Assembly (NCBI GenBank): GCA_050084515.1
Contig: CM114271.1
Span: 7,068,001 to 7,132,000, forward strand
Origin: Blasia pusilla
Lineage: Eukaryota
DNA length: 64,000 nt
Reading direction: 5' to 3'
Under the pieces are notes generated by a model. The model made no database searches. It saw only the letters and a list, made by a program, of their open reading frames with translations, and was not told where the DNA came from. Positions within the stretch are counted from its first letter, which is position 1. The number at the start of each line of letters is the position of its first letter. Positions 11,807 to 51,929 of this stretch are shown here, piece by piece. Made by a program: the position numbers and the translations under genes.

Positions 11807-12299
11807 TGTTAAATTAGACACAATCTCTCTCTCAACACCATAGTTCTCGCATGTGTGCACTCTCACATGTCTCTCTCCATGTCAAACCAAACCCACTCTC
11901 CTGTTGAGACGTTTGGATTACACACACAAGGCAAGCAAGATCATAGCTCCGCCGCCTCATGCTAAGAGGTTCAACAAAGATAGAATGAGCTCTCAAGCTC
12001 TCTCTCTCCTTGAGGTATACCCCTCCCCTCTTCCAAGCTGTCTCTATGGTAACCTATGCTTCCAAGTCACCTCCTTGGCTCTTGACCTGATGTAGGAGGT
12101 GAAGGGACACTTACCAAAAATACAAAATTGACAATATACTCAAAATGGCACATATCTAAAATAGTAAGTTCCTCAATATGGCTCCAAATGAGCCGAAACA
12201 AAGGCCTCGGTAGGTCATCCTTAACCTCATGAGTTTGTCCTCCACTACTCGCAAAGGCGTTCTATTAGATCTCACCGATCTATCTTAAAAGACGTGATA
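11807..12299 (-). repeat. Repeat A1 of element D
   Basis: Reverse-complement homolog of 23833-24338. On the minus strand it is followed by the PBS AAGAGAGAATG (11796-11806). Confidence 0.85.
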
Positions 12300-17717: not shown

Positions 17718-18200
17718 TGTCAAATATGAGTAGCCGATTGGTCGAGATCTATTGTGGATAGGGCATAGGAGCCAATGGACTATCTTGAGTGTAACGTTGT
17801 CCCACGGGGTCGGATGAGGTTGAGGATAGGTCCATTGTGTCAGGAACGTTGTTTCTGACAACTTTCCTGTTGAGGTCTTTCACAATTGGGTGACTTGTTG
17901 ACCAAGTCACCCGCCCTTGGTAACCTGTACGTGCAAGTTACCAAGAGGATAGCGATTTTTAGGGGAAGAGCCTTTTGGCTCTTCCTAACCCTATATAAGG
18001 GAGAAAGATGGCTTTCCCAATCCATCTTTCTCATGTTGGGCCGTTGGAGCACCTCTCTTGTATGTGGGTGAGATAAGACTAGGGTGCTAGCGTTTGGATT
18101 CCTTGATAGCATAGGGTGGACGAGGCTCGATATGCCGATGTAGATTGAGGAGTGGAGTTTTAGGTCGGGTGTGCCGTTTTTACTACTCTTTATTTTTACA
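17718..18200 (+). repeat. Repeat A1 of element B
   Basis: Starts TGTCA, has TATATAA at 17992 and ends TTTACA. It is followed by TGAGAAAGATG (18201-18211), the exact complement of 18023-18033. Confidence 0.75.
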
Positions 18201-19409
18201 TGAGAAAGATGTCGGGGGGCTAGTGGTAATTGGTTGTTTGTAGGTAGGAAAGCAAGTTGCCACGAGTGGGAGGCCCCTGGAGACGCTGGTTGGCATTTTG
18301 TTGGTCATTTTTATGTTCGGAAGACCGTGCGTGGAAGCGCTGTCCGTTTTCTCAGGTTTTTGCTAGTGCACAAGGATTGGGGATAGTGGTAGAGTGTAGT
18401 ACAAAGAGGGGTAGTGAGTGTGGTGTCAACGGATGAGCGGCGCATGGTGAGAACGTTGGTATTCGAGAGGGGAAGAGCATCTTTAGGGCTTGCAGCCGCT
18501 GGGGGGCTGTCAAGTAAAGGTGGCTAGAGTTAGGTCATAGCTCACTAGAGTCGGACGAAACCAAGGCGTGGACGTGGACGGAGCTAGGAGGCGGACTAAG
18601 CCGGGGGCGCAGAGGCGTTTACAAGGCCACGGACCCATCACAATTTAGGGCGGCCTCATAGGGCCACGGGCCCCGCATTTAGGCCCCCCCCCCCCCCCCC
18701 GCCGCGCCCTCTAGGCCATTAGGGCCCTCCAGGCCATTATGGCCCAAAGGGACGCGAGCCATACCTTGGCCCTTTTGTTTTTCCCCCTTACGTAGTTGAG
18801 AGCGCCGTGGTGAGCGCCTCCTCGACGTGGTGGAGTGCGGACGGGATTGAGTTTAGGTTGCGAGGTGCGTTTGGGGCTGGGCGGAGAGATTTTTCATGAC
18901 GTGATATTTTTCAAGCGTGGTTGGGGTTTGTGAGGATTCCGATGGAGGCATATACGCCGATGCTGACAGGAAGTTCGATGTGTTGGTTGAGGAGAGTTTC
19001 GTGTTGCGGAGGTTGTCATATCACGTGGAGGAGTGGATGTTGACGATGTAGTAGGTTCGTGGGCGTGATCAGTTTATCCATTTGAGTCCCTTTTCTTGCA
19101 CTTATCTTATGTGATTGAGAGTGCTTGGTATTGAGTAGCAGCAGGTGCTAGGTGGATGCAGTGATGGTGACAAGTGTAGACTCTTTTCATGTGTAGCATG
19201 TTGGTGGATATACGGCGGTTTCGAGTAGGGGTCGCATGTATGACCCGAGAGTGTTAGTAGGTTAGGTGAGTCAGTTAGGAGGCTCATGGTGAGCCCGAGT
19301 GTTGAGTGCGCGTGAGGCCGAGTGTGTCGTTAGGGGATTATTATTAGCATCGGTGAGCTAGTGAGGAGTGTGGGAGACTCTTGGTGAGTTTGAGTGCTTG
19401 AGCGGGTGA

Positions 19410-21955
19410 GACAGGGTTGTCATCACGGCATTCTTCCAGGGTTTGGAAGAACGGGGTCGTGCGAGCAGTAGTAGTGGTGTGACACGGAGTGGACTGAGAT
19501 ACGAAGGGGTTACGAATGAGGAGCTACCTCGACATCCATCCGTGGCTAGATTTTCATCACTAGACACTGGGTCTGGTGACGAGATCGCAGACGGAGGCAA
19601 TATCACTTGGCGGGAGATGGACAAAATGGGCCATCGAGGAATGCGTCGTTTCTCGAGTGCAGTGGGCACCATCGACTTAGATGATTTTATCCAGGAGTTT
19701 GACACGTGGTGCGACTTGCAAGAGATACAGACTGCGACACGGTTTAACCCTTTCATGGCATGGAAGGGGTTGTTCCAGCACTTGGAGGGTCCTCCGATGG
19801 ATGACTACATGGAGTTTTGATCACTACATTCAGTAGAGATTGATGCGTGGAGGATGTATTGGGCTCCAAGGTATGTGTTCACTAGTGGTCGCGAGGCATA
19901 TGATGAGAACGTGAGAGGAGAGAGACCCACACCATCAGCCCGGAGACTAGATGGAGAGGAGGGCAGTGAGACAGGCGATGTGGTAGAGACCTCTAGTGGT
20001 AGAGGGCCACCCAGCTTCAATCCCACAGTAGTGTTCTTCCGACAGTTGGTGAAGAGCTACCAGGGCGTACGCACCGACAAGTTGAAGAGTCTACAGGATT
20101 TTCAGCGACGATCGGGTGAGAGTATGAGAGAGGTATTCACACGCATTAGGAGGCTGATCATTGGTACAGGGTTTTGGACCGAGAACTACGAAGGAGAGTC
20201 CAAGATGCGGTGGTGATTCACACAGTGAAGCCCACATTGAAGGTGATCTTTGAGTTGTCTGAGCGTATTGAGCTCAACATGAGTGAGGAGCAGGTAGTGA
20301 CCGTTGGATTTTCTCGAGAGTTGAAGGATCCACCAACAACGGTGACCCCACAGGTGTCAAAGCGAGCACAAGTACCACGAGAGCGGGCGTGTGTGCCCAT
20401 AGAGCAGGTCGGGTACCGTGAGCCTATGAGGCAACGACACGTTCCTACATATGTTGCCCAGTAAGGACCAATGTTGTCTTGTTGGATGTGTGGAGGGGCC
20501 CACAGGCATAGAGATTGCACACAGCATGGGAGAGGACCAAGAGCGCCTCCGATTGCTCAGGAGCCACAGAGGATGGCCCCACCACAATACTAGTGTGACT
20601 ATTGCCATAGATATGGTCACACTAGGGATAGATGTTTTGACCTTCTTCGAGAGGCACATCCAGAGGTAGGGCGAGGGCCTAGGGGCGATCGTCTTGGAAG
20701 AGGTCGGGGAGTTCTTCCTGGATGTGGTGGTAGAGGACCACCACCAGCTAGAGGAGATGGAGCAAGAGCACCAGAGCCGGCACTTCTCTCACGCATTGAT
20801 CAGTTGGAGTAGAGGATTGCTGCCATAAGGATGATGCAGCTCAGGGAAGGCACGGAGCCGCGAGCACCTAGTGTGGCTTCAGCTTCTAATTCTTACCCTG
20901 ACCTGGGTGAGGATCTTGCTAGTATGGGGTTTATGTGTAGTGCAGATCAGGTTGAGGCGGCTGCAGTGGTGACTCGGGGTGCTGCAAGAGGTACCGAGCC
21001 ATCGAGAGGTGGAGTTGAGATTGACTCACCAGAGGGGACCGATGGGCGGCAGGCCAGGGTTCCACAGTCATTCACATTGTTGGAGGCACTACACACACCA
21101 TTGATGATTCCTTGACGACCAACGGTGCCTACAGCTCAGGCAGGTACATTGACCTCACGAGGAGTTGGAGTGACAACTCCTATGTCAGCTCGAGTGGAGT
21201 CAGTGTCGACCATAGTGTTGGAGGTGGCCACCATAGTAAGTTAGATTCCACTATTTTCCGCCATAGAGTTGGCGATGTTTGGAGTTGGACTAGTTGAGGT
21301 GTTTTGGCTAGCTATCACGTTGTGTGAATGTGGAGAGGTGACTGCTTCTTGTTCATAGGTAGTTGATGAGGTGATGGACTTGCCCTCAAAGCTAGTGCTC
21401 GGGACATCCCCCACAGAGTCATGGCATACGACGGCGGCAAATTTGATAGATATTCTAGCTCGACCGGCCATAGAGCGAGCAGTGGTGACACATGGAATAG
21501 TGTTACTGGATAACCGAGCTGGAGTAGTTTGCTTGGTTAGTCCAACGAGGACAGTATACCACCCGCATTGCGTCCTACTTGATTCACGAGTGCAACTCTT
21601 GATGTTAGGGAAGGCCGCGTGTTTAGCATTGGGGTTACGGAAGGCCGACATTGAGACTTATCCCTTTCAGATATAAACCTCGATTGGGGGCGTATCACCC
21701 ACATAGTATATGACTCGACAGGAGATAGTTGTCAGAGTCCAGCGAGAGCATGCGACGGATAGTGCTATGGTGCGCACATGTGCGATTACGACACCAAACG
21801 AGTCGTACGATGTGTTGGTGGGGAGTACAGTGTTATATCCCCTAGGATTCATCATTGACTTCTCGGAGGAGACCGTTGCTTATCCGCCAGGGTGGTGGTC
21901 AGGTGACACATGGATGAGTCAGTTATCCATGCAGTTTTTGGGAGGAGGTGGTTGA
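19410..21955 (+). pseudogene. gag and protease remnants of element B
   Basis: AVGTIDLDDFIQEFDTWCD; AWKGLFQHLEGPPMDDY; degenerate Zn knuckles at about 20480-20650; protease VLLDSR and ESYDVLVG. Confidence 0.85.
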
Positions 21956-22302
21956 TCACGAGACGAGTCTGTGACCACGTTGGCAACTTTCACAAGGAGT
22001 GTATGTTAGCTGGTCTGGAGAGTTGTTGGAGGGAAATGCACATGCACTGGATATCACAGTAGCGGATAGTCCCACGGAGAGACATGCCATGGCAGGTGTC
22101 TCTTCCCATGTTGGCAAGACCTCTTCACCATTGTGGGGTACGACTCAAGAGCTATAGAGGAGTGCCAACGACCTCGTGAGGCAAGTGTAGAGTCATGCCT
22201 TTATCCCGGAGCAGCAAGAGTCAGGTGGCCATCGGGCCCCTAGAGTGGAGGCGTTGACCCCACTGGATATCATACCCATTGTGTGGCAGTGTCGAGAGGA
22301 CG

Positions 22303-23227
22303 GTGTTAGATCTCTTCAGACGGATTAGCACCGGATTAGCTGCAATATTGCAGGCGGGCATTGGGGTGCATCGGTACCTTTATGTGGAGAGAGATGAGTC
22401 CGCGCGACAAGTATCATTACGTCACGTAGCGAGATTGGTCCAGAGGTATCATGAGTTTTTTCCGGTATCCGTAGTACAAGGATATCAGCATACACTACCC
22501 GCCGACATATCTTTGGTGGGGGCGCAGGATCTAGATAGAGTTGGCACCATTCATTTGGTGATTGGTGGATAGCCATGTGAGGGTCATTCATCAACTGGCC
22601 AAGGGTTTGGATTGAAGGACCCAAGGGCAGGGATATTTTGGGAGATGTTGCAAGTAGTACGACACTTGCAGGAGATGTTCTCCGACATATATTTTGGAGA
22701 ACATGCCGTTGTTGGGAGATACTCGTGCATGTGTGATGACGAGTGTGCATCAGGTGAGGTCCTCGTTGAGACCTGCTGTGTTGTTAGATGCAGCAAGAGT
22801 TGGATCACGCACCCATCGTCCATGACTATGGTGGACGAACTTGATACCATCATAGGTGCTGAGTCGAGCATAGGATGGAGTCCAGAGAGCACCACATCTC
22901 CCACTAGATGCTATTTTGGGATCAGGGCGTCGATCTCAGGTGGTGACGCAGGATGATAGACCACCGTTGGCGATGGCCAATAGGGTGGGGGAGTTGAGGG
23001 CAGCCTTATCTAGGTTGGTGAGCTTCCCAGCATCCCATGCCTTTAGTTAGGGAGGGCCAGGCATGATTTGGGATGAGGTGAACTGAGCATTGGAGGAGCC
23101 TCCAACAGATTAGCGCGAGCGTGCCATGGGGTTTGCTACGGGTACTACGGCGTTGCCAGATAGGACTGAGGCATCCCGGAGACAAGTGTTGGGGCAAGCG
23201 ATGGACCTCAATTGTCTCACATGGATA
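22303..23227 (+). pseudogene. DNMT3-like methyltransferase domain of element B
   Basis: VLDLF; YLYVE; HLVIGG*PCEG; ILEN (frameshifted); SRTHRP.LWWTN; AMGF; RRQVLGQAMD. Confidence 0.85.
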
Positions 23228-23832
23228 GTCAGCCTAGGTATGGATGAGCAGAGACAGATGCGAGTGTCATCTATGCCGTCACGTCCACAAGTCGGACCAT
23301 TGCCTATAGGGTCTGTACAAGCATTGGGTTGGGGTGGGACGAGGAGACATAGGCACCCATGGATTTCCTAGGACGTCGTTCAAGCGGAGAGTGCGGAGGC
23401 GGTGAGAGTAGCACATGTTCATTTTCTGGATGTAGAGCATGGTGTAGGAGGTCAAAGTGGAGTGGTTGTTGCGGAGGTGGCTAGGGTTACTACATAGCAA
23501 CCAAAGCCGGAGGTTGCCTCCTCTCCGAGTGAGGTCAAGATGGAGACTTGGGAGCCTGTGATAGGTATGAAGTTGATAAGAGGAGAGTGACGGCGAGTTC
23601 ATAGGTTTCTGAGAGGCCATGTAAGTTGTTTTGCCTTCAGTATGAGAGATTTGGATATGCTGAAGGGTCACAAAATACGGATTGAGTGGGCTAGTGATAC
23701 GACGATCTTTTGTCGACCCTACATGTATTCTGATATACAGCGAGTCTTGATTCAGACCAGGAGTCGGGACTTGTTGGAGGTAGGACTTGTGGAGTTATCA
23801 CATGGGGAGTATGCATCTGCCATAGTCATGCC

Positions 23833-24338
23833 TGTCACGACGGTTATGATAGATCGATGGGATCTAGCAGAGCGTCTGCACAAGTAGTGGAGGATAGGCC
23901 CAGGTGGTCGAGGATCACCTCTTGAGGCCCCGAGAAAGTTGAGAGAGCAGGTTTCCCCTTCGTTCGGCTCATTTGGAGCCATATAGAGAAACTTACTATT
24001 TTTGGTAAGTTTCCATATTAGGGATAGTTGACTTTCCACTTTGGGAAGTGGCCCTTCACACGTTTTAGCAGGTCAAGAGCCAAGGTGGTGACCTCCGAGC
24101 ATAGGTTACCGTTTAGAGGGCTTGGGGTATACCTCCAAGAGAGAGAGAGAGCTTGAGAGCTCATTCTCTATTTGTTGAACATCTTGGCATAAGGCGGCGG
24201 AGCTATGGTCCCTTGCCTTGTGAGTGTAACCCAAGCCTCTCATTAGAAGAGTGGGTTTGGTTTGACATAAGAGAGAGTGCACACCTTTGAGAGCTATGGT
24301 GTGAGATGGTGTAGAGAGAGATTGGATCTTACTTTACA
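23833..24338 (+). repeat. Repeat A1 of element C
   Basis: Direct repeat of 33625-34137. Ends TTTACA and is followed by the PBS AAGAGAGAATG. Confidence 0.92.
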
Positions 24339-25887
24339 AAGAGAGAATGAGAGAGTGAGAGAGCTTCATGGGGGAGCTCGCTGGTCACTCGTTGTTTTTG
24401 CAGGTTGGGGACCATGTTTCCCATTCAGCAGCTCATGGGAGTGCTCACCGGAGCAAGGGATTCTTTGATTGTTCTTTGCATTTGCCGATTTTTTGTGTGG
24501 AAGAGTGGCGCACGGAAGCGCTACCCAATTTATGATAGGGATTGATTATATATGGGGGCGTGTTGCCCCATGCCGGAGCTCTTAAGAGCACCATGTAGCT
24601 TACTGATTTGTATTTTTACAGGTTTTACATTTGTGTTGGGATAACTCAACGCAAAAGCGTTGCCAAATTTTGTGTAGAAGAAAGAGACATTGAGCTTTAC
24701 GACAGTCCCTTTCAGTTTTTTCTCGAATGTCCGTTTCTAAATTATCTTTGACGCTCTTGTAGATTGTGAAGTTGTGCACGATATGCATCAAATAATACGC
24801 AATTTGGAGTTGTGAGCAAAACGTTATGGTCAATATTGCAAAATTGGCATTGCTAGGCGATTTTTAGGGTTAAACTGTTCAAACCCTAAACCAGCCGCCA
24901 TACCGGCGGCGGCCGTCGCCGTTGTAGTCACCATCAATGGTCTTCCGTCGATGGTCAATCGTCACCATCATCATTCAACCATCACCATCAATGGTCCACC
25001 GTCCGTTGTCCACCCTTTGGTTGCCATTGCCGCCGTTACGGAGTGGAGGGTCTCTTACGACGTTCGTTGATTCTTTGACTTGCGTCGCCACCACGTACTT
25101 TGTATTGGCCGCCATCATCATCAAATTTTTGTCATCAACCAGTGATGGCAGATGACCTCCGATTATGGTGTTTGAGTTTTGATTTCATGCTGCTATGTTG
25201 TGATTGGTAGCCGCTCGACGATGATTGATTACCGTGCCGTGACGCCCGTAGCCGCAACGCGCCGTCGATTGCCACGTCGTGTTGCTCGTGGCCGTACGGC
25301 ACCATCTCGATTGCAGAGCTGCTCTGTCATTGTGGAGCAGAGTGTGGGTTTATTGTTGATTGAGGAGGGTATGCCGCTGAGTGCCGCATCCCACCATCTA
25401 TGGCCGTGCCGTTTTGTGCCGCCTATTGCGCCGCACCGTTCTGTTGGAACCGCACTGTCTATGGAGGAGTTTTGAGCAGCGTCAGTACGGGAGGATTATG
25501 ACTTGCTGATTGGAGGAGTTGTCTCCATAATCGAGTTGGGGTCGAGATTTGCAGTTGCTGAGGAGCGACATCGACATGTGTTTAGGTTACCCATTATGGT
25601 CCTTTACCCTGCACGCGTGAGGGATTTTGGGATTTGGATAGTTTATTTGGGGATATTGGGTTGTGTGGATGCTGAGAGCATCATTTATATATGTGGTTTA
25701 GGGAACATAGACCTGTGTGGGATGTCCAAAGTTGAGGATAGGTTATCGATGAGATGATAGCCTGGTCGATTTTCCGCACCACGTCGCTTGTTGCCGCACG
25801 TTACACCTCTCGGGGAGGGAGAGTGTAGATCGAGGGCCGAATGTTTGGGATGAATGATTGAGGGATTACTCGGGAGGTTGAGAGTGA

Positions 25888-28083
25888 TTGAGTGACAGGG
25901 GCACGAGGATCATCACGGCGTCCATTCGGGACTTTGAGAGGCGAGGTGGTGAACCTGAGAGTACCTCTAGAGGTTTTACGCGGAGTGGCACGAGGTTCCG
26001 AGGGTCTCCACGTGAGGGACCACCTCGACCTCCTTCTGTGTCATCGTCAGAAAAGGGGGAGGGTGTAGAGGAGTTTGTGAGCACATCACCACACATTGTG
26101 AGTGGTCCTACCAGTTGGGCGTACGGGATGGACGACCGGAGTAGAGGACCGCATAGGTTTTCAGATGCAGTAGGTACGATTGAGTTGCATGATTTCATAG
26201 CAGAGTTTAAGAGTTGGTGCGACTCCCAGCGGGCCAGGAAATCTAGAGAGTTCAACCCGTTTACAACATGGAACGGTATGTTCTAGCATTTAGAGGGGGC
26301 ACCCATGGACGATTACCATGAGTTCTCTCAGAGATATGCATGTGAGATCGAGGCGTGGATGCTCTACTATGACCCACATTATGTGTCATGGACGAAACCG
26401 TTCCCAGATGAGGAGGAGGAGTCAGGAGTGGCTACTTCCTCTTCCACTAGTGACGTTTTAGGAGGGATCACTCGCACAAGAGCAATTGCATCCTCTAGTC
26501 GGGTTTGTCCCAGGTTCAACCCTGTGGTTGAGTTCTTTGCTGAGTTGAGGGCATGTGCGGCTCAACAGCAACCGCCTACTATTATTTTTTGGTCATGTGG
26601 TGGAGCCCATCATCAACGCAATTGCACTCGTCAGGGTCATGGATGTGTGCCTCAGCATGGAGGAGGAGATGGTGCTGCACCAAGAGGTTATCAGTGTGAC
26701 TATTGTAAGAGGTATGGTCATACACGCGCCAGTTGTTTCAGTTTACATGCTAAGTTACGTCTGGATCGAGGGCCAGAGAGGGCACCAGAGCGAGTAGCCA
26801 GTCCGGTTGGGCCTAGAGATCGTGCACTAGGTAGTCCCATTGAGGGACGAGGAGCTGGAGTTGCCCAACACGGTGGTGGAGCTACCCGTGGAGGAGGTAG
26901 AGTCCTACCACCTAGACACGTTGAGGGGGATGCCGGGCGTGAGGCTAGGATGGCTGCTCAGATACATCAGCTACAGGAGCAGATTGCTGCTATGGCATTG
27001 AGATCACCCGATGCCGGATCTGTGGCATCGACATCATATGGAGCAACCATAGATATGGAGGATCCTAGTTGGATGTGCGGGGTTGCCTAGATGGAGACAG
27101 CCGCAGTTGTGACGCGTGGAGCAGCCTCAGAGTTGGATCCACAGCGAGGGGAAGCCACAAAGAAGACTAGGCTTCCTCAGTCTTTTAGTTTGTCCAAGAC
27201 GATGAGGACTCCATCGATGGGTCATGATCTGAGTTCCTGGAGAGTTGGTGATGTTGTTGGTGTGCAGGCACAGAGGGCGATGGGAGAAGCGAGTGCGACG
27301 AATCCTATTGTTGATGCTCAAGAGGGGCATGTGTCGAGCACGTTGTTGGGGGTTGCCCCCATTGTGTACCGCGCTCCTTTATTTTTTGCTTCCGATGTTA
27401 TGACGTTGGGGGATACGCCCGCCGAGGCTTTTTGGCTGGCCGCTACGCTATGTGAGCGTGGAGTTGGAGTTCCCGCATCACATTCAGACGTGATTGCGGA
27501 GGAGGTGATGGACCTGCCCTTGGAGCAGATGCTCGAGCCGTCCACGTGAGATTCATGGCAGGCTGCGGCTGCTAGGATGGCGGAGATGCCCGCTAGACCC
27601 ACGATAGAGCGTGCCATGGCTTCTCCTGGTGTTGTGTTTCTGGATAATCGTGGAGAGGTCTTCCAGTTGGTGAGTCTCGGAGGTAGAGCTTTTAGTTCGC
27701 AACGAGTCTTGTTGGATTCAGGAGCGCAATCCCTGATGTTGGGGAAAGCCTCACTTAGAGAACTGGGCTTGACGAGAGCCGATGTGGAGCATTTTCTATT
27801 CCAGATACAGACATCCTTGGGTGGATCAAGAACCACACAATATATCACCCAACAAGAGGTCGTGGTGAGGATTCACCCGGGACATCTTATAGATGAGTCC
27901 GTGGTGCGAGCCAAGGCGATAGTGACTCATGTAGAGTCCTACGATGTCTTGGTTGGTGGAGCAATGTTATACTCGATGGGGTTTTCCCTGGATTATTGGA
28001 GGAGTCAGCGTCCTAGAGACCAATATGGCAATCAAGTGATGGGTACCTTTGCTCATTACCCGTTCGATTCACAGGTACAGTGA
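25888..28083 (+). pseudogene. gag (Zn knuckles) and aspartic protease of element C
   Basis: AVGTIELHDFIAEFKSWCD; CDYCKRYGHTRASC (CX2CX4HX4C); RVLLDSGAQSLMLG; ESYDVLVGG. Confidence 0.88.
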
Positions 28084-28433
28084 TCGAGCGACGGCCACGA
28101 GAGGTGGCAACCTTAGCAACATTTAGCAGTGCCATCACTTGGCCTAGTGATTTGATTGAGGGACATATCCATGCAGAGGATACTCCTGTTCTTGACATTT
28201 CTATGGAGAGGAGTGTTATGGTAGCCGCATCATTCCATGGAGGAGAGGTGCCGTTATGGGGCTTGACTGAGGAGCTTCGACGATTGGCAAATGAGCACGT
28301 GCAAACCGCATGGAGCCAGGCGTTTGCACCAGAGCGTGACAGGTCTGGGGAACCCGAGGTAGCAGGGAGTGCTACAATAACATCCTTGGATACCATACCC
28401 ATTGTGTGGTGTATCCCGGAGGAGGGTATTCGA

Positions 28434-31020
28434 GTGTTAGATGTCTTTGGAGGGATTAGCACAAGTTTAGCTGCTGTTTTGTAGGCAGGAGTGCGAGTGC
28501 AGCAATACCTGTATGTGGAGAGTGATGATGTTGCGAGTGCGTCTCACCACAAAATATGGCACAATTATGCCTACATTTTCCCGACTTATTGTCTACGTCC
28601 CCAATACATGGGTATCAGAGTTCCCTACCGAGGGATATTTTGTTGTTGGGGGCGCATGACTTAGAGCAGGTAGGGACCATTGATTTGGTCATTGTCGGTT
28701 GGCCATGTCAGGGCCAATCGAGTGTTGGACGAGGCAGCGGGTTGGCTGACACTCGGTTCAAGTTGTTTTGGGAGATGTTGTGGGTCTTACAGCAATTGCA
28801 AGAGCACCAGTCGCGTTCTCGAGCCTACATTCTGGAGAATATGCCGATCTTAGGAGACTCCAAGTCACGGGTGGTGACGAGTGCTCACCAGATGCGTGCC
28901 ACGATCGGCCCAGTTGTGTTCTTGGATGCGGCGAGTGTAGGTTCTAGAGCCCATCATCCGCGTCTATGGTGGACCAACTTGGTAGAGCGCCCCTCCCATT
29001 TGTTAGGGGATTCCATTTTGGATCCAGGTGGTCGATCATAGGCAGTGAGGCACGATGATCGACCACCGTTGTCGTGTCGAGAGCCTTTCTTTGAGTAAGG
29101 GCATGCCTTCTAGCTACGACATACGTGGTCGATGCAAGGAGAACTCTCTAAGAAGTTCTCCTTTTTCAATAAAAAATTATTATGTATGCTCTCAATTATC
29201 TCACGACATGTATCAAAAATGAAATTGTCGAGCACTTTTTCGTAACATCGGACCCCAAAATTCCTAACTATAAAATCCATATAAACAACCTTGGTAAGGA
29301 GCAAGTAGATTCATGAATATGAGTTTCAGGAGATTGCATTCTAGACGATAATGATGACCTTGGTAAGGAGCAAGTAGATGGCTCAACGTGGCTGACTTGC
29401 ATTTTGGGAACTTCTACATCTTCTTCTATCGTAGTTTATATCGTTACTTCTGCACTTTACTGTACTTTTTTTCTTGGCGGAGCACTTCCTTGCTTGCCAC
29501 GCACTATAACTCTTTCTTTGTCAGAAGGCTGCAACAGTTACTATGGTCACTCACAACAAATTAGCTTTGTAGTTTGTTTGTCTAGATCTTCGCTGGAAAC
29601 ATTTATTAGACCATGGCCATGATGAAGTGTACATATCAAAGGATTGAGTCATTATCTAAAGTTGGGTGTGTTACATTTTTCATTCAGGAATGTCATTGGA
29701 ATACTTTACGCTTGTACATGAGGAAGATAACACAACTAGTGTTAAATCCTACTTTAGCAGGCCTATTGACGTCCATGGATTGCTATATAAGGACATACAA
29801 AATACAATCCCATGTCCTTCCATATGTGACAATAGGAAGGATCACCGTAGTTGGAGATTGAATGACCTGGTTCATGAACGCCTCCCCAAAGTGATAAACT
29901 AAATAGAGAGTGAATCAATATCTATCTACAAAGAGTACCTTGATATGGTATGGATTGAGGAAAGGAAATTTGGGCACAACTCGTGCTTCACCCCTGTCCA
30001 TGTTTGACAGAAATTTTTATTCTCCTCAAGAATGGGTTTTGGCAAAATTATTCTCCCAAGAGGGGTAATCCACTCTAATTGGGAAAGTAACAAACCTAAA
30101 CATTCACTATTTTAGTATGACTAAACTCCTCTAAGGTGACAAACCTCTCATCTCCACATACACACACTGCACTGTAGAAACCTCTCGAAGAATAGACCAT
30201 GGTGAAGTTACTGTCCCAAGAGGGGTGATCCATTCTCATTGGAAGAGCAAACAATCCCAAAGCCATACATTGAAGAGTGATACGAGAGACTCAAGATGTG
30301 GAATAAAAGGTGATGAACCCTTGAAGGTCCCTCCTCTTTATAAACTCACAAGTGATCCACAATAGTAGAAAATAAAGCTAATCTTATCTTGTGCCACATG
30401 GCTTCCTCTCAAGGTTTAGCCAATCACATTTTGACACAAGTAGATTTCCTCTTATCTCTTCCAAAATATCCTCTTTTACCCACTTGATATTTTCCAAATT
30501 ACCCCAACTAACCTAACCACCAACAAAGACTACTTTTGTTTTTCATTAAAGCATCAACCTCACTACTTTACTTTTAAAAAATCATATTTTATTTATTACC
30601 TCTTTTTTTAAAATTGGGCCCGCATAAAAGAGGCACAATAAAGAGGTTTAAACATGAGAATTTTCTTTTCCTAAGCTAATTTACTTAATACCAATAAAAC
30701 TCTATCTAACACTTAACGAGGAAGGAGTTTACATATTGAGTGATTTTACTATACGACACCGTTGAGTGTGGTCAACAGGGTAGGGAAGCCGCGGGCAGCC
30801 TTGCCCACGTTTGTGAGTTTTCCCGCTTCCTATGCATACAAGGAGGCCGGTCCTTGCTTGGCTTGGGATGACCAAGTTCAACGGTTGGTGGAGCCTAACG
30901 CCGACGAGAGAGCGAGCGATGGGATTTCCCACAGGAGTGACGACAGTATCGTCAATGTCAGAGGCATCACGACGCCATGTCTTGGGTCAGGTGATGGACC
31001 TGAACTGCTTGACATGGATC
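28434..31020 (+). pseudogene. DNMT3-like methyltransferase domain of element C, split by the insertion at 29070-30758
   Basis: Before the insert: VLDVFGGIST, YLYVE, DLVIVGWPCQGQS, YILENMP, SRAHHPRLWWTN. After it: EPNADER, ERAMGFP, RRHVLGQVMD. Confidence 0.9.
29070..30758 (-). mobile_element. 1.69-kb non-coding insertion with the family's termini (solo A+B unit or non-autonomous element)
   Basis: Termini TGTCGT...ACGACA with a perfect 4-bp TSD CCGT (29066-29069 / 30759-30762); removal restores RPPLSVVNR. Orientation is inferred from a minus-strand TATAAA near 30340 and the CACGACA end. Confidence 0.85.
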
Positions 31021-31370
31021 CTCAGTTTGGGAATGGTTGAGCAATGTCGTTTGAGATCGCGATAGATCACAGCGGTTGCGTTGGTGAGCCCCGTGCCTAC
31101 CGAGACAGTGGAGGCAGAAGTTGGGCCGAGACCCGAGGAGATCTACACACCAGGGGAGATCGGGAGAGACACCCTTGGACTTCTTGGGATGTTTGGCAAG
31201 TACGCTAGGAGATGATAGCCAGAGCATCAAGCGTGGTTCCGGGCACTGCATGTGTAGGAGATCAGAGTATGCAGTTGGTAGTAGGAGAGCGGTCGAGTGT
31301 TGTTGTTTGAGACGGGGTTGCACCATAGCAACCACTAATACCTGCGCCAGAGAGTCCTACCGTAGTCACA

Positions 31371-33573
31371 ATGGAAACTTGGGAGCCAGATATGGGCCCT
31401 AAGTTGAGAGGAAGAGAGCGGCGCCGAATACATCAGTTCCTCATGAGTTATAGGAGCTGCTTTGCGTTTAGCATGGAAGATTTGGGTACGTTGAAGGGAC
31501 TAGGGATCCACATTGAGGTGTCAAGTGATACGCCGATCTTCGGACGACCCTATAGGTACAGTGATATGGAGAGGGCTCTGATTCAGAGTAGGATCCAGGA
31601 CTTGGTCGGAGCAGGACTAGTGGAGATGTCGCATGGGGAGTATGTATCTGCCACTATCATGCCCGCCAATAAGGATGTGCATGGCAATTGGACGGATAGG
31701 CGGATGTGTAGGGATTACGGACCTATCAATCGGCAGACGAAGTTCGATAGGTATGCCATGTCCATCCTCTAGGAGATCTTTGATGCGATTTGTTACGCAA
31801 AGGTCTTCTGTTCATTGGATTTACAAGCCGGATACCATCAACTGCCTATCAGATTGGAGGACAGGGAGAAGACGTTTTTTTTGGGCATCGATCCTCACTG
31901 GAAGGATTGTTTGTACCAGTGGCGGTTCTTACCATTTGGGTTAAAGAACGCCCTGACTGAGTTTCAGAGGGTCATGGATAGGATCTTGGTTGGTCAAGAT
32001 TTTGCTAGATGTTATATTGATGATATCCTAGTCTTTAGCGCCACGGTTGAGGAGTATGAGCGACATCTAGAGGAGGTGTTTCGACCATTGCAATTACATG
32101 GGCTGAAGCTACATTCAAGCAAATGCAAGTTCTTCTACGACCAGATTGAGTACTTGGGTCATAAGATATACCCATGGGGCCTTGGTGTTCAACAAACGAA
32201 GGTAGAGGCTATCTCATGCATTCCACGCCCTACAGATATGAGCGGTGTTCGCGCATTCATGGGATTGGCAAACTTCTATCGGCGTTACGTCAAGGGATTC
32301 AGTTCGATTGCGAAGCTGCTGATCTTGCTGACCAAGGTGGATCACGAGTGGCACTGGAAGGATGAGCAGGAGCGAGCATTTTAGTTGCTCAAGGACAGGT
32401 TGACGTCCGCGCCCATCTTGAGAAGATCGATCAGGGGGCGTCCTTTCCAATTGCACACAGATTGGAGCATGTTGGGGCTTGGAGCGATGCTCACTCAACA
32501 TGATGATGAGGGTAGAGAGTTCGTGGTGGCTTACACTAGCCGCTCGAACAACGCTGCAGAGGCAAAGTATAGTTCATATGAGAGTGAGTGCTTGGCTGCG
32601 GCGTGAGCTATCGCGCATTTTAGGTGTTACTTATTCGGAAACCCCTTTACCATCATCAGTGATCATCAACCACTGAAGCCGTCGATGGAGTCCGACAAGC
32701 TTACAGGAAAGCTTGCGAGATGGGCTGTGTTGTTGCAGACCACAGATGCTCAACCAAGATGCATAGGTTGAGTCGTAACCCATGCTTGAGTAAACGAGAT
32801 GCGATTGGAGCTCGATGGCATGGAGAGAATGATGAAGAGTCAGTGCTAGGATGGCACGCGTCAGCCTATTTAGGCATGTTGGCTATGGAGAGCCAGAGTG
32901 TGGAGACTTCGATGGCGAGGTCTAGTGGAGAATCCTTGGACCTTGAGGCCAGTGAGGAGATGACAAGTGGCCGAGATATTCATGATGATGGAGTAGTCTT
33001 GGAGTACCTTCGTACTGGCAGCGTTGCGAGCACCGTGGGTGCTAGAGAGCGGGATCGGATCCTACAACGGGCCAGACGGTTTCGTTGGGAGGGGACACAT
33101 GTTTTGAGGGTTTGGGAGGATGGTAGAGTACGCGTAGTGCCGCATTCTTTGCAGAGAGCATGACTAGTGCAACATGTCCACGAGGAGTTGGATCACTTTG
33201 GGATGAAGCGGACGTACAACTTGCTCCAGATTCAGTATTGGGCATAACCAACATCGGGATACATTGAGGTATGCGACTATTTCGGGTGGTGGTTATCGAC
33301 CAACTATTTGGAGGTTTCATCAGGGAGATTATGTCTACTTGCAGCAGACGACATCGACGACGTTGGATGTGACTGCAGGGTGCACTATCATGAGAGTGCG
33401 TAACGTTTAGCCATGTGATGTTCTCTTGCTGGAGGGGCACGATGGTATGGTATGGAAGGACCATGTGCGTAATTGTGCGCCATGTCACCGTCCTAACATT
33501 GATGGTACAGTAGATCCGAGCTCAGCAGTAGTTCCTGCAGGCTTGCGTTGTATGTTGTGTGGTTCTGCTCGTG
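31371..33573 (+). pseudogene. RT, RNase H and partly deleted integrase with the start of the PHD finger, element C
   Basis: LDLQAGYHQL; FLPFGLKNA; CYIDDILVFS; FQLHTDWS; YSSYESECLA. The integrase core is deleted near 33240, and CMLCGS at about 33550 is joined to B1. Confidence 0.92.
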
Positions 33574-33622
33574 GTTCGATGACAACGATGTACGTTGTGT
33601 AGCGATGTGTATGCACACGACA
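33574..33622 (+). repeat. Repeat B1 of element C (5'-truncated by deletion)
   Basis: Matches 34206-34254. Ends CACGACA, followed by AC and the start of A2 (TATCACG). Confidence 0.85.
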
Positions 33623-33624
33623 AC

Positions 33625-34137
33625 TATCACGAGTGTTAGGATAGATCGGTGGGATCTTGTAGAGCGTCTGCACGAGTAGTGGAGGATAGGCCCAAGAGGT
33701 CGAGGATGTCCTGTTGAGGCCCCGGGAAACCTGAGAGAGCAGGTTTCCCCTTCGTTTCGGCTCATTTGGAGCCATATAGAGAAACTTACTATTTTGGGTA
33801 AGTTTCTATATTGGGGATAGTTGACTTTATACTTTGGGAAGTGGCCCTTGACATGCTACAGCAGGTCAAGAGCCAAGGAGGTGACCTCCGAGCATAGGTT
33901 ACTGTTGAGAGGGCTTGGGAGAGGGAAGGGGGTATACCTCCAAGAGAGAGAGCTTGAGAGCTCATTCTCTCTTTGTTGAACCTCTTGGCATAAGGCGGCG
34001 GAGCTATGGTCCCTTGCCTTGTGAGTGTAACCCAAACCTCTCATTAGGAGAGTGGGTTTGGTTTGACATGAGAGAGATTGCACATCTTTGAGAGCTATAG
34101 TGTGAGATGGTGTAGAGAGAGATTGGATCTTACTTTA
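33625..34137 (+). repeat. Repeat A2 of element C
   Basis: Direct repeat of 23833-24336. Confidence 0.92.
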
Positions 34138-34254
34138 TTGGAGATATTTTGGTACTTCTCGCCTCTGTGTATGGATGCCATGAGTTAGCATGGGATCGTG
34201 TGTGTGTTCGATGACAACAATGTATGTTTTGTAGCGATATGTATGCGCACGAAA
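34138..34254 (+). repeat. Repeat B2 (terminal) of element C
   Basis: Homologous to 33574-33622 and to the reverse complement of 63112-63238. Confidence 0.88.
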
Positions 34255-34258
34255 TGCT

Positions 34259-36890
34259 GGCAAAGAAGGATATGTATGGCAATTGGACGCATAGGCGGAT
34301 GTGTGGAGATTACCGTCCTATCAACTAACAGATGAGGTCAGATCGATATGCCATGCCTACTCGTGAGGAGATCTTTGATGCGGTAGGGCATGCAAATATT
34401 TTCAGTACTTTAGATCTCCGTGCTGGCTATCATTGGCTTCCTATCAGGTTGGAGGACATAGAGAAGATAACATTATGGGGGATAGGTCGATTTGGGAGAG
34501 ATTGCTTGTATCAGTGGCGGTTCCTAGCATTTGGGTTGAAGAATGCGCCTGTAGAGTTTCAGAGAGTGATGGATAGGATTGTGGCTCGCTTGGATTTTTT
34601 ATTATGTTACATAGATGATATTGTTATCTTCAATTCCACGGTTGAGGAGCATGAGCAACACCTGGAGGAGGTGTTTCGGTGATTGGAGTTACATGGACTG
34701 AAGTTACATCCATGCAAGTGCAGATTCTTTTAGGAGCAGATTGAGTACTTGGGACACACCATATACTCGAGTGAGTTAGATGTTCAACAAACAACGATGG
34801 AGGCTATTGCGCAGATTCCACGCCCTACAGATGTGAGTCAAGTCTGAGCCTTTCTTGGACTGGCAAACTTCTATTGACGGGATGTCAAGGGTTTAGTGCT
34901 ATTGCAAAGTCTTTGAACTTGTTGATGAGACTTAATCAGGTTTGGTTGTGGGGAAATGATTAGGAGCGAGCATTTCAAGAGCTCAAGGAAAGGTTGATGT
35001 CCTCACTCATTTTACAGAGATCGATTAGGGGTTGCCCATTCCAGTTACATACGGATTGGAGCATGTTGGGTCTAGGAGCAGTGCTTACTCAGAGAGACGA
35101 TGAGGAAATGGAGTTTGTTGTGGCTTATGCGAGCCGATCGAACAACATTGCAGAGGCAAAGTATAGCTCTTACGAGGGAGAGTGCTTGGCTGCAATGTGG
35201 GGCGAGGCACATTTCAGGTGCTATTTATTCGGCAACCCTTTCACACTTATCACTAATCATCAGCTGTTGAGGTGGTTGATGGCGTTCGACAAGCTTACAA
35301 GAAAGCTTGCCAGGTAGGCTCTATTACTACAAGAGTATGAGTTTGAGGTGGTTCATAGGCCAGGTCGGTTGAACCAGGATGCGGATGGGTTGAGTCGTAA
35401 CCCATGTCCGAGTCAGAGAGACGACATAGGAGCTCGATGGCACGGAGAGAGTGATGAGGAGATGGTGCCCAGGTGGCATGCATCTACCTATCTTTGTTGG
35501 TTGACTATGTTAGGTCAGTCGTAGGTGATAACTCCAATGGTGGGGTTGGATGACGAGTCTTTGGATCTAGAGGTCAGTGAGGAGGCGACAGGTGGTGGTG
35601 ATATCCATGACGACGTGGAGGTTGTGGAGTTCTTGCGCACTGACGTCATAGCGAGCACAGTGAATGCTAGGGAGCGGGATCAGATCCTACTGCGAGCCAG
35701 GAGGTGTAGGTGGAAGGGGACTCACATTTTGCGTGTATGGGGAGATGGTAGGATACGAGTGATACCTCATCCTTCCCAGCGAGCACGTGTGGTGCGACAT
35801 GCCCATGAGGAGTTGGGGCATTTTGGAGTAAAGCGTACTTACAACTTACCTGTGTTCAAGATTGGTGGAAAAGATGCATCCGGGGGGTACAGCTTGATTT
35901 GTGGCCAGATGTATGGTATGTGATAGAATGCGATCATCCTTCAATGCTCCCACTCCGCAGTTACATCCTTTGCCAATTATGGGATTGGGTTATCGATGGA
36001 GTTTAGACTTTGCGGGATCTTTGCCATTGACGGGGCGTCATCACAGATATGTGTTGGTCATGGTGGAGCATTTCTCCAAGTGGATAGAGTTGGGGGCAAT
36101 ACCGGACAAGGCGAGCGAGGGAACAGCTTATGCGTTTCTAGATCGTGTGCTTAGTCATTTTGGTGCACCAGCGGAGGTGTCGACTAAATAGGGTACCGAT
36201 TTCAGGTGAGAGTTTCAGGCCTTGTGTGATTAGGCGCTGATAAATCATTGCACCATGTCCAAAGATCATCCAGAGGCGGATGGGTTGGCGGAGAGAGTAG
36301 TACAGACGATGAAGAGAGGATTGCACAAGTATGGCTTGCAGCGAGGATAGTTGAGGGAGTGGGACCTACAGTTGCCATGGTTGGCGATAGGTTATCGCTT
36401 TAGTCGGCAGGCATTCTTAGAATCATTTTCACCATACTTTTTGCTCTTTGGGAGAGAGCCAAATTTACCTACAGCCATTCGACGTGGCATGGGGGAGGTG
36501 TAAGATCTTGATGATCCAGATGTGTGGGTACAAGCGTGTTCTCAGAGGGCCGAGATTTTTCGTAGAGTTATGCCTATGGCCTTTGAGAACTTAGCTATTG
36601 CTCAACATAGAGATACATTGAGGTATGCGACCATTCGTGGAGGAGGTTATCATCCAGGGATTATGAGTTTTCATCATGGAGATTACGTGTATTTGCAGCA
36701 GGCGGCACCCATGACGCTAGATATCACTGCAGGGCGCATAATCCTACGTGTGCGCGAGGTATTACCGACTGGAGTCCTCATGTTGGAGGGACGGGATGGT
36801 ATGGTTTCGAAGGATCATGTGCGCAATTATGTGCCATGTCATCTTTCGAACGTAGACGAGACTGTGGATCCGAGCTTGGCTGTTATATAA
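34259..36890 (+). pseudogene. RT, RNase H and integrase of element B (continuation after element C)
   Basis: FSTLDLRAGYH; FGLKNAP; CYIDDIVIF; FQLHTDWS; HAHEELGHFG; WSLDFAG; VEHFSKW. Many in-frame stops. Confidence 0.92.
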
Positions 36891-37103
36891 GGGAGGAAGA
36901 TGGCTTTCCCAAGCCATCTTTCTCATGTTGGGCCGTTGGAGCACCTCTCTTGTATGTGTGTGAGAGTTGTGTGATCTCCATGTATGTGTATGAGTTGATT
37001 TCTCTACATGTGTGGATCTACCCGTGTGTGGGGAAGATCGGTGTTGTGTGGTGTAGATGTGACCAACGATGTATGTTGTGTAGCGATATGTATGCGCACG
37101 ACA
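36884..37103 (+). repeat. 3' terminal repeats of element B: partial A2 (36884-36965) plus terminal B (36966-37103)
   Basis: 36884-36965 matches 17992-18073. The terminal segment ends CGATGTATGTTGTGTAGCGATATGTATGCGCACGACA like the B repeats of A, C and G. PHD, B1 and the first part of A2 are deleted at a TATA microhomology. Confidence 0.85.
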
Positions 37104-38199
37104 AACGAGATGTGGGAGAAAAAGAGGAATACGGTCTACAATCCAAAATATAGATACCCCCTCATAAAATGGAGGTTCAAAGAGAGAGACTTAAACTACG
37201 CTTTTCAAGTGGTACACATACATATTCTTCCATAAAATGGACTTGTAAGAGCATCCATGCCATGCACTGGCATTAGTATGAAGGGTGATGAGAGACGAGA
37301 AAGAAATGTGCAAGCCTACTCACAAACTTGAGCAACTTCACTCTCCTTGGTTCCCTCCCGATTTGGCACCAATTTGGTGTTTTGGCTCTCCACTCCACCT
37401 TCTTAGGCTCTATTATGCTCTCCCCTTACACTTTCTCCTCCGCATTCAACCTCCACACTTTCTTCTCCAAATTAGAGAAATGGCATTGGCACGTTTATTT
37501 ACACTTAGGTTTGTAGGAATGATAACACGAATAATGAGAAAACAACTTCGAAGGTAGACAAAACATTTTTTTTGCGTGGTTTTTTCCTCGAAGAGTTACC
37601 CTAGGATTAGGCTTGTGGGAAGTGCATCAAATCACACATTTGAAGCATGATAGAACATTTTTGTGAGGAGATGATTTATCTTGGTCTTATTCCTAGAATT
37701 ACGTTTGTGGGAAGTGGCTTCACTTCTTTTTGAGGCCACTTTTCCACCATAAGTAACACCCCATCCTTTGATTATAGTATAGGTGTGCGCCATAAAAATG
37801 GGGTGTGGCAAAAGCTCACCCACCATTTCCTTGCCTTTGGCTAGCTGTCCTCCAAAAGGTCCACACCGAAGTTGCGTGCTTGGGCACCAGCAGCAGCTCA
37901 AGCGATTCTTCTCCTCCTCCTATTATTCCCACTTCTACGACTGCTACTGCGGCCTGCCTTGGATGTGGTTGTTGCTGTCGGTGGTGGTGTTGCACGAGAT
38001 GCCGAGTTCTGCTGCTACCCTTCATAGTAGGGTAGCAGCAGCAGGGAGAGACTGCCGCTACAGGGAGAGAACATTGCCTCCCCCCCCCACCCCACAGCTC
38101 TCTCGCAGCAGCTATGTTCTGCGTCGCAGAACATAGCGTCTGTCCTACCTTTCCTACCTTCATGCCTATTCCTACATTGGTGGGTTGGGTTGGGTCGAG

Positions 38200-38235: not shown

Positions 38236-39263
38236 CCTGCTTATCAGTGCCACCACCACCCACTGATCATTTTGTGTGGTTGCTTGTCTTGTCTTTGACC
38301 ACCTGTTCTGTCCTTTTCTCTTTTTTTTTTTTTTCTCTCTTCACAACACATCATCCTCCTGTTCACCATCTCCTCTCTCCCTCTCCATGTGTGAGTGCGT
38401 CGTCCGATTTTCACAATTTCCGTCACTGGGAATATCAAGGCCTCTGGGTCTCACAGGGTCGCTTGCTTGATTGGAAGCTGGCAGGCTCTAAAGGAAGGAG
38501 GGAGTCAAAAGAAGTAGTGAGTTGAGGGGGGAGGGTGGGCAATGATCCTCATCCCATCACCCCTACTGCTGCAACTTCTAACCTGTGTGCCACTATACAA
38601 CCAGACGGAAGGAGGCGTCTGTATGTCTGATGGTGGGGTTCCTATAGCCTCTTCTTGCCGGAAGGCTGCAGCAACTGCAATCCATGTGTGGTTTGTGCTG
38701 CAAATGGACGAATCAGGAAGTTTGACATTGTGGGATGGGTTTGCGCTTGGCCGCATCGGCTCAGCAGCAGCATAGATGCTGGGAATAGCTGGAAAAGCTG
38801 GGTGTGAGTCTTCTACCTTCTGGCTCACTCTCCTTAGTGGAAGGTCGTTGTTTGGATGCTTTACACCCGGGTGGGATTCTTCGGAAGTGTCTGGATGGGT
38901 GCCGCACAAGGAAATAGTGTTGTTTGATGTTTTGTGTAACTGATGGATTTGGGATGATTGTATTTCATAATGAAAACTTATGAGGAGGATAAAATCACCA
39001 GTGTAGCTGTAGAAAGCTGGAAGCGTCGACATGAGGGAAGTGGTAAGAAGAATCAGCTTCTCAGATGGCATAGCGTACGAGGTACATTTGAGGAAGCGAG
39101 GTATCGACCGAGTTTCACTTTGAGCACAGGTGCTGAGGAGAATCGCTGTACAGGTATCGGTGCGGGAAAGTTGGAAATTGTGAGAATCTTGCCACCTTCC
39201 CCTTATCTGTAAACCCAACTGGTCTGGAACTACCGCGAGCAAGAATTCGGCGCAGGAAGGAAG

Positions 39264-51300: not shown

Positions 51301-51378
51301 TTGCGATGGAGAAATTGGATGTTGATTGAATGAAGTATTGATGAAAATTGAATACAAGTATATATTCAAACCCAGGGG

Positions 51379-51707: not shown

Positions 51708-51929
51708 CCCAAGGGAAAATCAAAATATTTTCTCTAACTTTGTGTGCAACGGAGCCTCATAACTTCAACGCTTCACAAAGAGGATCCAAAATTCATGCTA
51801 AGTGACAAAGAGGAGATGAGCTTTGCTAACATTATGGTTGATCACATCCAAAGAGAACTAACTTTCTACAAGATATATTTCTATTAGCTATGAGAAGTTT
51901 TTGTTTCAAATCGCAAGAAGGTATAACAA

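Follow-up and report, generated by a model that had tools for sequence, protein, structure and literature searches.

Does a retrotransposon of a land plant carry a DNA methyltransferase of its own, and has its lineage kept that enzyme? The question is raised by a 64-kb stretch of the genome of the liverwort Blasia pusilla (64,000 nucleotides; assembly GCA_050084515.1, contig CM114271.1, positions 7,068,001 to 7,132,000 of the forward strand), here called the window and numbered from its first letter, in which a DNMT3-like cytosine-C5 methyltransferase (C5-MTase) domain, the DNMT domain, recurs among retrotransposon remnants. Cytosine methylation is the main route by which plants silence transposons, and a transposon equipped with a de novo methyltransferase turns this picture upside down. 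We consider it highly probable that the window holds a nest of dead copies of one integrase-bearing Ty3/gypsy-type retrotransposon family, and that these copies are land-plant members of the Gypsy-DNMT3 kind. The copies are called elements A, B, C, D and G; the DNMT domain was analyzed in B, C, D and G.

A methyltransferase domain lies between protease and reverse transcriptase

An earlier note on this DNA, based on reading the letters, had described a C5-MTase domain in four copies and named a match to the Pfam family PF00145 as its test. The domain is real. With a PF00145 cut-off of 22 bits, and with fragments scored at E<=0.01, open reading frames (ORFs) of three copies lie above the cut-off: a 232-amino-acid (aa) ORF in element D (6464-7162, minus strand; E 6.5e-14, 52.5 bits), an ORF in C (28529-29041; E 7.2e-8, 32.7 bits) and one in G (63579-63851; E 9.1e-6, 25.8 bits). 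The remaining DNMT fragments, two of three in C, one of two in G and all three in B, have no Pfam match at E<=0.01, though the B domain is 63-66% identical by tblastn to P0001, a protein of the liverwort Calypogeia fissa. By tblastn the domain extends over 6206-7443 (-) in D, 22005-23362 (+) in B, 28275-29074 and 30756-31125 (+) in C, and 63174-64000 (-) in G. All four copies located by the earlier note are therefore present, with extents slightly wider than it had given.

The position within the polyprotein was also as described before: in B, C and D, tblastn places the protease (PR) directly upstream and the reverse transcriptase (RT) directly downstream of the DNMT domain. The context of G is not readable, with the window end on one side and a truncation at ~63243 on the other. 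Read against P0001, the motifs follow the collinear order I-IV-VI-VIII-IX-X in every copy, and all seven motifs listed in the note were recovered in copy C (LDVFGGISTS, YLYVESD, IVGWPCQGQS, YILENMP, GSRAHHPRLWWTNL, ERERAMGF and RRHVLGQVMDLN). Motif I (FxGxG) is intact in C, D and G. Of the catalytic residues, PCQ survives in C and D, and ENV in D and G; G has PYQ, in which the catalytic Cys is replaced by Tyr, B has a stop as well as PCE (Gln to Glu), and B and C have ENM. The note's statement that all copies are disrupted also holds: we counted 7 stops and 2 frame changes in B, 3 stops, 3 frame changes and a 1.69-kb insertion in C, 4 stops and 1 frame change in D, and 4 stops and 1 frame change in the truncated G. 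Element B is diverged, as had been claimed, with a nucleotide identity of ~65% to the other copies compared with 78-83% among C, D and G, and with a synonymous divergence (dS) above 1.

Every window copy is fragmented and several fragments are missed by Pfam, as would be expected if a host DNMT3 gene or fragment lay by chance among the insertions, or if a single copy had picked up the domain without its being a component of the element. This explanation is extremely improbable and is already contradicted. The same order and the same PR and RT junctions are shared by three copies that inserted independently and belong to two diverged subfamilies, and the PR-DNMT-RT order recurs in 14/14 long related loci and in uninterrupted single-ORF polyproteins. 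Furthermore, no PWWP or ADD domain was found, and DNA-read depth on the domain exceeds that on the adjacent single-copy gene by a factor of 25-70. The view that the domain is a long-standing part of the lineage was upheld, since domain and position are kept in uninterrupted polyproteins from Closterium and metagenomes and in proteins of Calypogeia and Marchantia. A one-off capture was rejected on the same kind of evidence, the domain being conserved across subfamilies and taxa.

The domain resembles the catalytic part of DNMT3

Among solved proteins, the single D frame matched DNMT3A best (E 2.1e-5 over motifs IV-VIII); its motif VIII, SRAHRxxLWWTN in the window, corresponds to SAAHRARYFWGN in chain 2qrv_A. 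HhaI matched the D frame only around motif IV. A profile built from 12 family members and run against solved proteins reached E 2e-21 to 3e-18 with DNMT3A/B/C, in three collinear stretches (motif I, motifs IV-VIII and motifs IX-X), compared with 6e-11 to 2e-8 for DRM, ~3e-8 for HaeIII/HhaI and ~1e-5 for DNMT2. An AlphaFold model of the D ORF had a mean predicted local distance difference test score (pLDDT) of 69 and a predicted template-modelling score (pTM) of 0.63, with residues 1-38 unreliable. Foldseek searches with this model returned only DNMT3A/B/C among the 31 matches listed for ranks 1-49, and among these the chains matched with E 2e-8 to 2e-6, TM scores of 0.43-0.50 and ~20% identity. 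The ESM Atlas yielded generic PF00145 clusters only.

Animal DNMT3A/3B/3C (2qrv, 6kda, 8tci) are thus the best profile and fold matches and share the motif order, including the DNMT3-type motif VIII. The window domain differs from them in being only ~20% identical, in lacking the PWWP/ADD readers, and in being embedded in a retrotransposon polyprotein; Pfam found neither PWWP nor ADD in the window fragments, P0001, or the related proteins P0029 and P0288. The DRM enzymes are likewise DNMT3-related de novo methyltransferases of plants, but the text of de Mendoza et al. (2018, PMC5890265) describes their motifs as circularly permuted. The window domain is collinear, and its score against DRM is ten orders of magnitude worse than against DNMT3. 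A DRM-type enzyme was rejected because the motifs are collinear. Since profile and fold are closest to DNMT3 and PWWP/ADD were not found, the domain is best classified, judging from its sequence, as a DNMT3-like catalytic domain that is neither a DRM nor a full DNMT3 protein. The collinear motif order and the profile match agree with its earlier description as DNMT3-like and non-rearranged.

The domain was under purifying selection

Codons of each copy were mapped onto reference proteins, and pairs of copies were compared by the Nei-Gojobori method. The ratio of nonsynonymous to synonymous divergence (dN/dS) of the DNMT domain was 0.13-0.54 in 6/6 copy pairs, and the upper bounds of the 95% confidence intervals were 0.23-0.80. 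Between subfamilies it was 0.13-0.29; the note had named a neutral ratio here as a reason to doubt the domain, and the ratio is not neutral. The DNMT values are similar to those of RT (0.19-0.59), RNase H (0.14) and integrase (0.13-0.18); the protease gave 0.17-0.78. Shifting these codon pairs into the +1 and +2 frames, as a control, gave 0.67-2.61. With dN/dS below 1 in all six pairs and higher values in the shifted-frame controls, the DNMT domain was evidently kept by purifying selection while the lineage was active.

Three points speak against this conclusion. In the closest pair, C-G, the in-frame value of 0.51 is near the shifted-frame values of 0.67 and 0.87, so that the signal is weak; the difference between these two copies must be mostly decay after insertion. 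Protein-guided codon maps favour conserved stretches. Finally, dS is saturated (>1) in all pairs with B.

An integrase-bearing element with split terminal repeats

The Pol order PR-RT-RNase H-integrase (INT) is that of gypsy-type elements, with a gypsy-type RNase H, an H2C2 and rve integrase and a C-terminal PHD finger. The elements are not bounded by a simple pair of identical long terminal repeats, as a further 110-125 bp lies beyond the 3' long repeat. Instead, split repeats in the arrangement A-coding-B-A-B were found in element A (94.6% identity between A1 and A2 and 92.8% between B1 and B2), in element C and in the metagenome locus L017 (A1 1676-2017, B1 10238-10350, A2 10350-10691, B2 10693-10805). 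Among 14 long metagenome loci, L017 was the only one with the full A-coding-B-A-B arrangement, and one other (L004) had A repeats running to the contig end; in the other 12, no terminal pair spanning the coding region was present within the available sequence. Possible 4-bp target duplications flank 2/2 nested insertions (ATGC for C and ATCT for A), with ends ambiguous by 1-2 bases. No primer-binding site was recognised after repeat A1 in a reading by eye, with no systematic search. A tyrosine-recombinase DIRS element was considered and rejected, given the rve/H2C2 integrase and the possible 4-bp duplications. That DIRS-like repeats occur here together with a DDE integrase and possible target duplications bears on how split-repeat elements replicate.

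A comparable gypsy element, KnitGypsy-Dnmt3 of Klebsormidium nitens, has a Dnmt3 domain of the non-rearranged type within its Pol ORF, with repeats described in the Fig. 4c legend as 'the same as that of a DIRS retrotransposon' and a Ka/Ks reported in the text as below 0.2 (de Mendoza et al. 2018, PMC5890265). It shares with the window elements the DNMT3-type domain in Pol of an integrase-bearing gypsy element, the A-coding-B-A-B repeats and purifying selection. Its host is a charophyte alga and the present one a liverwort, and the two are likened here by the published description. SymbioDIRS-Dnmt3 of Symbiodinium, as described in the same text, likewise combines A-coding-B-A-B repeats with a Pol-borne DNMT3-type domain, and two domain orders coexist there; it uses a tyrosine recombinase, whereas the window family has the H2C2 and rve integrase and possible 4-bp duplications (PMC5890265). 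Two later papers, in their accessible text, mention '(Gypsy-DNMT3)' in streptophytes, or retrotransposon-embedded DNMT3 members 'as previously reported'. Full-text searches turned up no description of land-plant elements of this kind, nor did passages of plant methylation papers contain one, although more may be present in figures and supplements; this agrees with the earlier note, whose author was not aware of any characterisation from land plants. The window elements are most probably land-plant members of the Gypsy-DNMT3 kind and form a distinct branch, with the methyltransferase placed between protease and RT. Among streptophytes the kind had been described in an alga only, with an enzyme never shown to be active, and the liverwort family extends it to land plants.

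Two architectures among the relatives

The best relatives of the DNMT frame are Calypogeia fissa proteins with 60% identity and the protease-DNMT arrangement. A profile search of 1.84 billion representative proteins gave 13,667 matches at E<=1e-3, 1,953 at E<=1e-10 and 408 at E<=1e-30, and the majority of relatives are metagenomic. BLAST probes were used to determine the side on which the domain lies in 157 proteins: 93 had it on the RNase H/integrase side and 19 on the gag/protease/RT side, and 45 were without readable context. The placement between RNase H and integrase, seen in 93/112 relatives with readable context, marks a larger sister group, one source of which is a 'pol' of Scenedesmus sp. 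PABB004. Protease-side sources are Calypogeia fissa, Marchantia polymorpha subsp. ruderalis (hypothetical proteins OAE22373.1 and OAE24016.1) and Closterium strains NIES-53, -54, -65 and -68.

The protein P0029 (2188 aa) contains, in one open frame and in this order, zf-CCHC, an aspartic protease (below the Pfam cut-off), DNA_methylase, RVT_1, RT_RNaseH, Integrase_H2C2 and rve; P0288 of Closterium sp. NIES-53 (1928 aa) has the same Pfam domain set minus the protease family. The gag-PR-DNMT-RT-RNase H-INT order was found in all 14 long metagenome loci examined, which are mostly degraded. None of 53 metagenome loci had an uninterrupted gag-to-integrase ORF; their longest DNMT-matching frames were 1369 aa (L019, PR-DNMT) and 1795 aa (L036, a distant DNMT-RT-RNase H-INT). 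By alignment consensus, intact relatives keep motif I, PCQ, ENV, an RxR-type motif VIII, and motifs IX and X. In the window (4669-5166 (+), E 7.7e-7) and in P0004, P0006 and P0008, the integrase is followed by a PHD finger. Many plant gypsy elements have a chromodomain where these have the PHD finger. With PHD finger and methyltransferase, the element carries two chromatin-related modules.

A tree of the DNMT domain comprised 131 rows, each with 270 or more aligned residues; shorter matches were excluded. All 13 protease-side rows, together with window D and 4 context-less rows, formed one group with a support of 99 in the Shimodaira-Hasegawa-like approximate likelihood-ratio test (SH-aLRT), and no RNase H-side row fell inside it. 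Window D grouped with the Calypogeia protein P0001 and with the protein P0002 (SH-aLRT 99). An RT-RNase H tree of 58 rows separated 5 protease-side rows plus window C from 52 RNase H-side rows, again with SH-aLRT 99. Because the two trees show the same split, the domain would have moved position, or been captured, once on the protease-side branch and would since then have travelled with its RT.

Certain features of these data count against a single history. Both trees are unrooted quick searches that include neither bootstraps nor outgroups from host DNMT3 or other gypsy elements, and a common origin of the two architectures is suggested by similarity (35-41% identity). The clean separation of the architectures in both trees is also expected if the protease-side elements captured a host DNMT3 independently of the RNase H-side elements of charophytes and green algae, as two captures by sister lineages, and DNMT capture by retrotransposons is recurrent according to the text of PMC5890265. 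Two acquisitions nevertheless appear improbable. The window DNMT ORF matches RNase H-side domains at E 1e-17 to 1e-26, at the identity just given, compared with only E 2e-5 for DNMT3A; the integrase-PHD tail is common to both architectures; and the window elements share the A-coding-B-A-B repeats with KnitGypsy-Dnmt3 as its authors describe them (PMC5890265). A single origin can be extended, speculatively and with a probability that we consider rather low, to an ancient green-lineage clade of chlorophytes, Zygnematophyceae and liverworts, with an integrase and DIRS-like split repeats, in which a single move took the methyltransferase from the integrase side of RT to the protease side and of which some liverwort copies may be intact and transcribed.

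The comparative base is widened by the 408 clusters at E<=1e-30, by the hypothetical-protein fragments of Marchantia polymorpha and by the second conserved domain order.

Copy number, RNA and decay

Abundance was read from a genomic run of the same species label and RNA from three raw-read RNA-seq runs, with reads accepted at 95% likeness. Because DNA-read depth was 12-31 on the DNMT bins compared with ~0.45 on the host gene KEG, the data suggest tens of family copies at 95% likeness or more. Sense RNA reads, with mate orientation as on KEG, were found on the element in 3/3 runs. Their depth on the DNMT bin 28469-29135 was 0.76, 0.78 and 1.39, and that on KEG was 1-8. With tens of liverwort copies, and some sense RNA on them, experiments in a land-plant model may come within reach.

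Reads and window differed at 535 places, of which 275 had A or T in the window and G or C in the reads (A>G 146, T>C 129), compared with 99 in the reverse direction; this bias indicates that the window copy decayed mainly by C-to-T and G-to-A transitions. The observed/expected CpG ratio was 0.69-0.75 in the element copies, 0.44 in KEG and 0.56 in the 12.3-18.0 kb spacer. Higher CpG in the elements is unexpected if they have long been the more heavily CG-methylated compartment.

The sense strand of the elements is G/T-rich (window 1-12000 and 18000-37000), a strong strand asymmetry. Plus-strand copies have a GC skew of +0.18 to +0.31 with a negative AT skew, and the signs are reversed on the minus-strand copy D. 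The asymmetry could reflect a strand-specific C-to-T bias in the element life cycle or after insertion.

Possible role of the methyltransferase

The Gag-Pol polyprotein of an intact element would run from gag (CCHC) through aspartic protease, DNMT3-like C5-MTase, RT, RNase H and integrase (H2C2 and rve) to the PHD finger. In intact copies, the domain would be made within Gag-Pol and would be an active DNA 5-methylcytosine methyltransferase dependent on S-adenosylmethionine. Its substrate may be the DNA copied from the element's own RNA, and if this were methylated before or during integration, a new copy would arrive already with a host-like methylation pattern. The earlier note had proposed that the enzyme, once freed by the protease, would methylate the cDNA, the circle or the new insertion. 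Self-methylation of the element's own complementary DNA (cDNA) is a specific role and, in our judgement, the most plausible function, although we hold it tentatively and at less than an even chance.

Selection by itself names no substrate, and the domain may have been kept for another role: on host DNA around the insertion, on element RNA, or as a non-catalytic module for DNA binding or tethering beside the PHD finger. The C-terminal PHD finger of the integrase suggests chromatin reading in the biology of the element. In addition, the text of PMC5890265 reports that the domain of the charophyte relative KnitGypsy-Dnmt3 gave no DNA methylation in yeast, an assay in which human DNMT3B failed too and which the authors call inconclusive, and it raises RNA methylation and host-side effects as possibilities. 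We consider such other roles possible but on the unlikely side. The full catalytic set kept in intact relatives argues for catalysis and against a non-catalytic role, and the closest solved relatives, DNMT3A/B/C (E 2e-21), act on DNA, with the RNA enzyme DNMT2 much more distant (E 1e-5).

Methylation of the element's own cDNA has to be weighed against further observations that are unfavourable to it, as is the yeast result. Because all four window copies are broken, with the catalytic motif damaged in G and B, they cannot make the enzyme, and nothing in the window can be active. We know of no enzymatic activity for any element of the Gypsy-DNMT3 kind. RNA per copy is about two orders of magnitude below KEG, and the reads may stem from any paralogue. 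CpG depletion, looked for as a sign of methylation decay, found no support, the copies having a higher ratio than the host gene. If liverworts, including the tractable model Marchantia, still have intact and transcribed copies, then transposon-encoded de novo cytosine methylation of cDNA and its share in a land-plant methylome would become genetically testable for the first time.

Anatomy of the nest and its neighbourhood

The nest was resolved by self-BLAST and flank alignments, and coding regions were mapped by tblastn with P0001, P0002 and P0004. Element C (23832-34262, +) is complete but degenerate and is nested in the RT of element B. Its ends, set by self-BLAST and flank alignment, are confirmed by 58 DNA reads from the genomic run that connect 23832 with 34259/34263 and so represent paralogous copies in which the site is empty. 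The following parts of C lie on the plus strand. Repeat A1, the 5' long repeat (23832-24336), is 89.6% identical to 33624-34137. It is followed by a gag region with a CCHC-type knuckle (25888-27090; ORFs, tblastn with P0002 and a weak zinc-finger match below the Pfam cut-off) and by the aspartic protease region (27325-28032; tblastn with P0001/P0002, and a weak Pfam gag-asp_proteas match below cut-off, E 0.0078). The N-terminal part of the DNMT3-like domain, with motifs I to VIII, occupies 28275-29063 (PF00145 E 7.2e-8, tblastn and motifs), and the C-terminal part, with the end of the target recognition domain and motifs IX and X, occupies 30757-31125 (tblastn, and the motifs ERERAMGF and RRHVLGQVMDLN). 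RT and RNase H follow at 31464-32747 (PF00078 E 3.7e-25, PF17919 E 8e-20, tblastn with P0004), and then an integrase remnant with an internal deletion at 32849-33572 (tblastn with P0004). The 3' end consists of the conserved core of repeat B1 (33574-33620, 89% identical to 34206-34252), repeat A2 (33624-34137, by self-BLAST) and the conserved core of repeat B2 (34206-34252), with the element ending at ~34258-34262.

The two parts of the DNMT domain of C are separated by the 1.69-kb AT-rich insertion (29064-30756), which has the 8-bp repeat CACCGTTG on either side. Because 10 DNA reads and 1 RNA read skip from 29063 to 30757 with 8 shared letters, the insertion is missing from other copies; it is private to element C or a few copies. 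It has a GC content of 37% and no frame above 99 aa, and RNA reads on it run opposite to the surrounding element, at a depth of up to 7.6. Its 8-bp duplication suggests what we presume to be a non-autonomous DNA transposon of hAT type.

Element B is split by C. Its 5' part (17992-23831, +) contains gag, PR (21206-21943), DNMT (22005-23362) and the start of RT (23534-23831), mapped by tblastn, and its true 5' boundary lies at or before 17992. The 3' part (34263-37104, +) holds the rest of RT, RNase H (RT_RNaseH E 1.7e-25) and integrase, whose rve match has E 4.4e-7 and, at 30.5 bits on a fragment, is just under the 32.6-bit cut-off. Within it lie an 82-bp A-repeat remnant (36884-36965, +) and a B-type repeat (37064-37104, +). 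The 82-bp unit shared by the two ends of B, at 17992-18073 and 36884-36965, is 96% identical between them and has a very high DNA-read depth of ~250. Hundreds of reads have flanks unlike the window at 36884 and 36965, which indicates that the 3' long repeat of this copy of B has lost most of its length.

Element D is read on the minus strand. Its 5' part (5925-12299) comprises an A1 repeat (~11800-12299), gag (8730-10215), PR (7491-8359), DNMT (6206-7443) and the RT start. The RT continues at 1-419 (-), where the window start cuts it off, and 10-419 matches C 31872-31455 at 82%. Between these parts lies element A (420-5924, +), an internally deleted relative nested in the RT of D. It has gag, the tail of the DNMT region and an integrase with the PHD finger (Pfam Integrase_H2C2 E 1.6e-16, PHD E 7.7e-7), and is without PR, DNMT core or RT. 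Self-comparison placed its repeats, all on the plus strand, at 420-788 (A1), 5338-5444 (B1), 5446-5814 (A2) and 5814-5924 (B2). At the other end of the window, the remnant of element G (63112-64000, -) consists of DNMT sequence from 64000 down to ~63243 (motifs I-VIII), which directly abuts a B-type terminal repeat (63238-63112).

The host gene KEG, a multi-exon E3 ubiquitin ligase gene with RING, kinase, ankyrin and HERC2-like repeats, lies at 39213-49052 (+) and looks intact. In the last exon it shares 88% identity with Marchantia polymorpha KEG and 85% with that of Calypogeia fissa, followed by other land plants, which marks the host as a liverwort. KEG was expressed and spliced in 3/3 RNA runs, and its spliced reads have GT..AG joints. 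Beyond it, gag-only remnants of the same retrotransposon family lie at 52140-55780. Among them are repeats of ~330 bp, found in both orientations with 72-78% identity at 51369-51713, 56021-56357, 56521-56846, 57278-57499 and 58543-58830.

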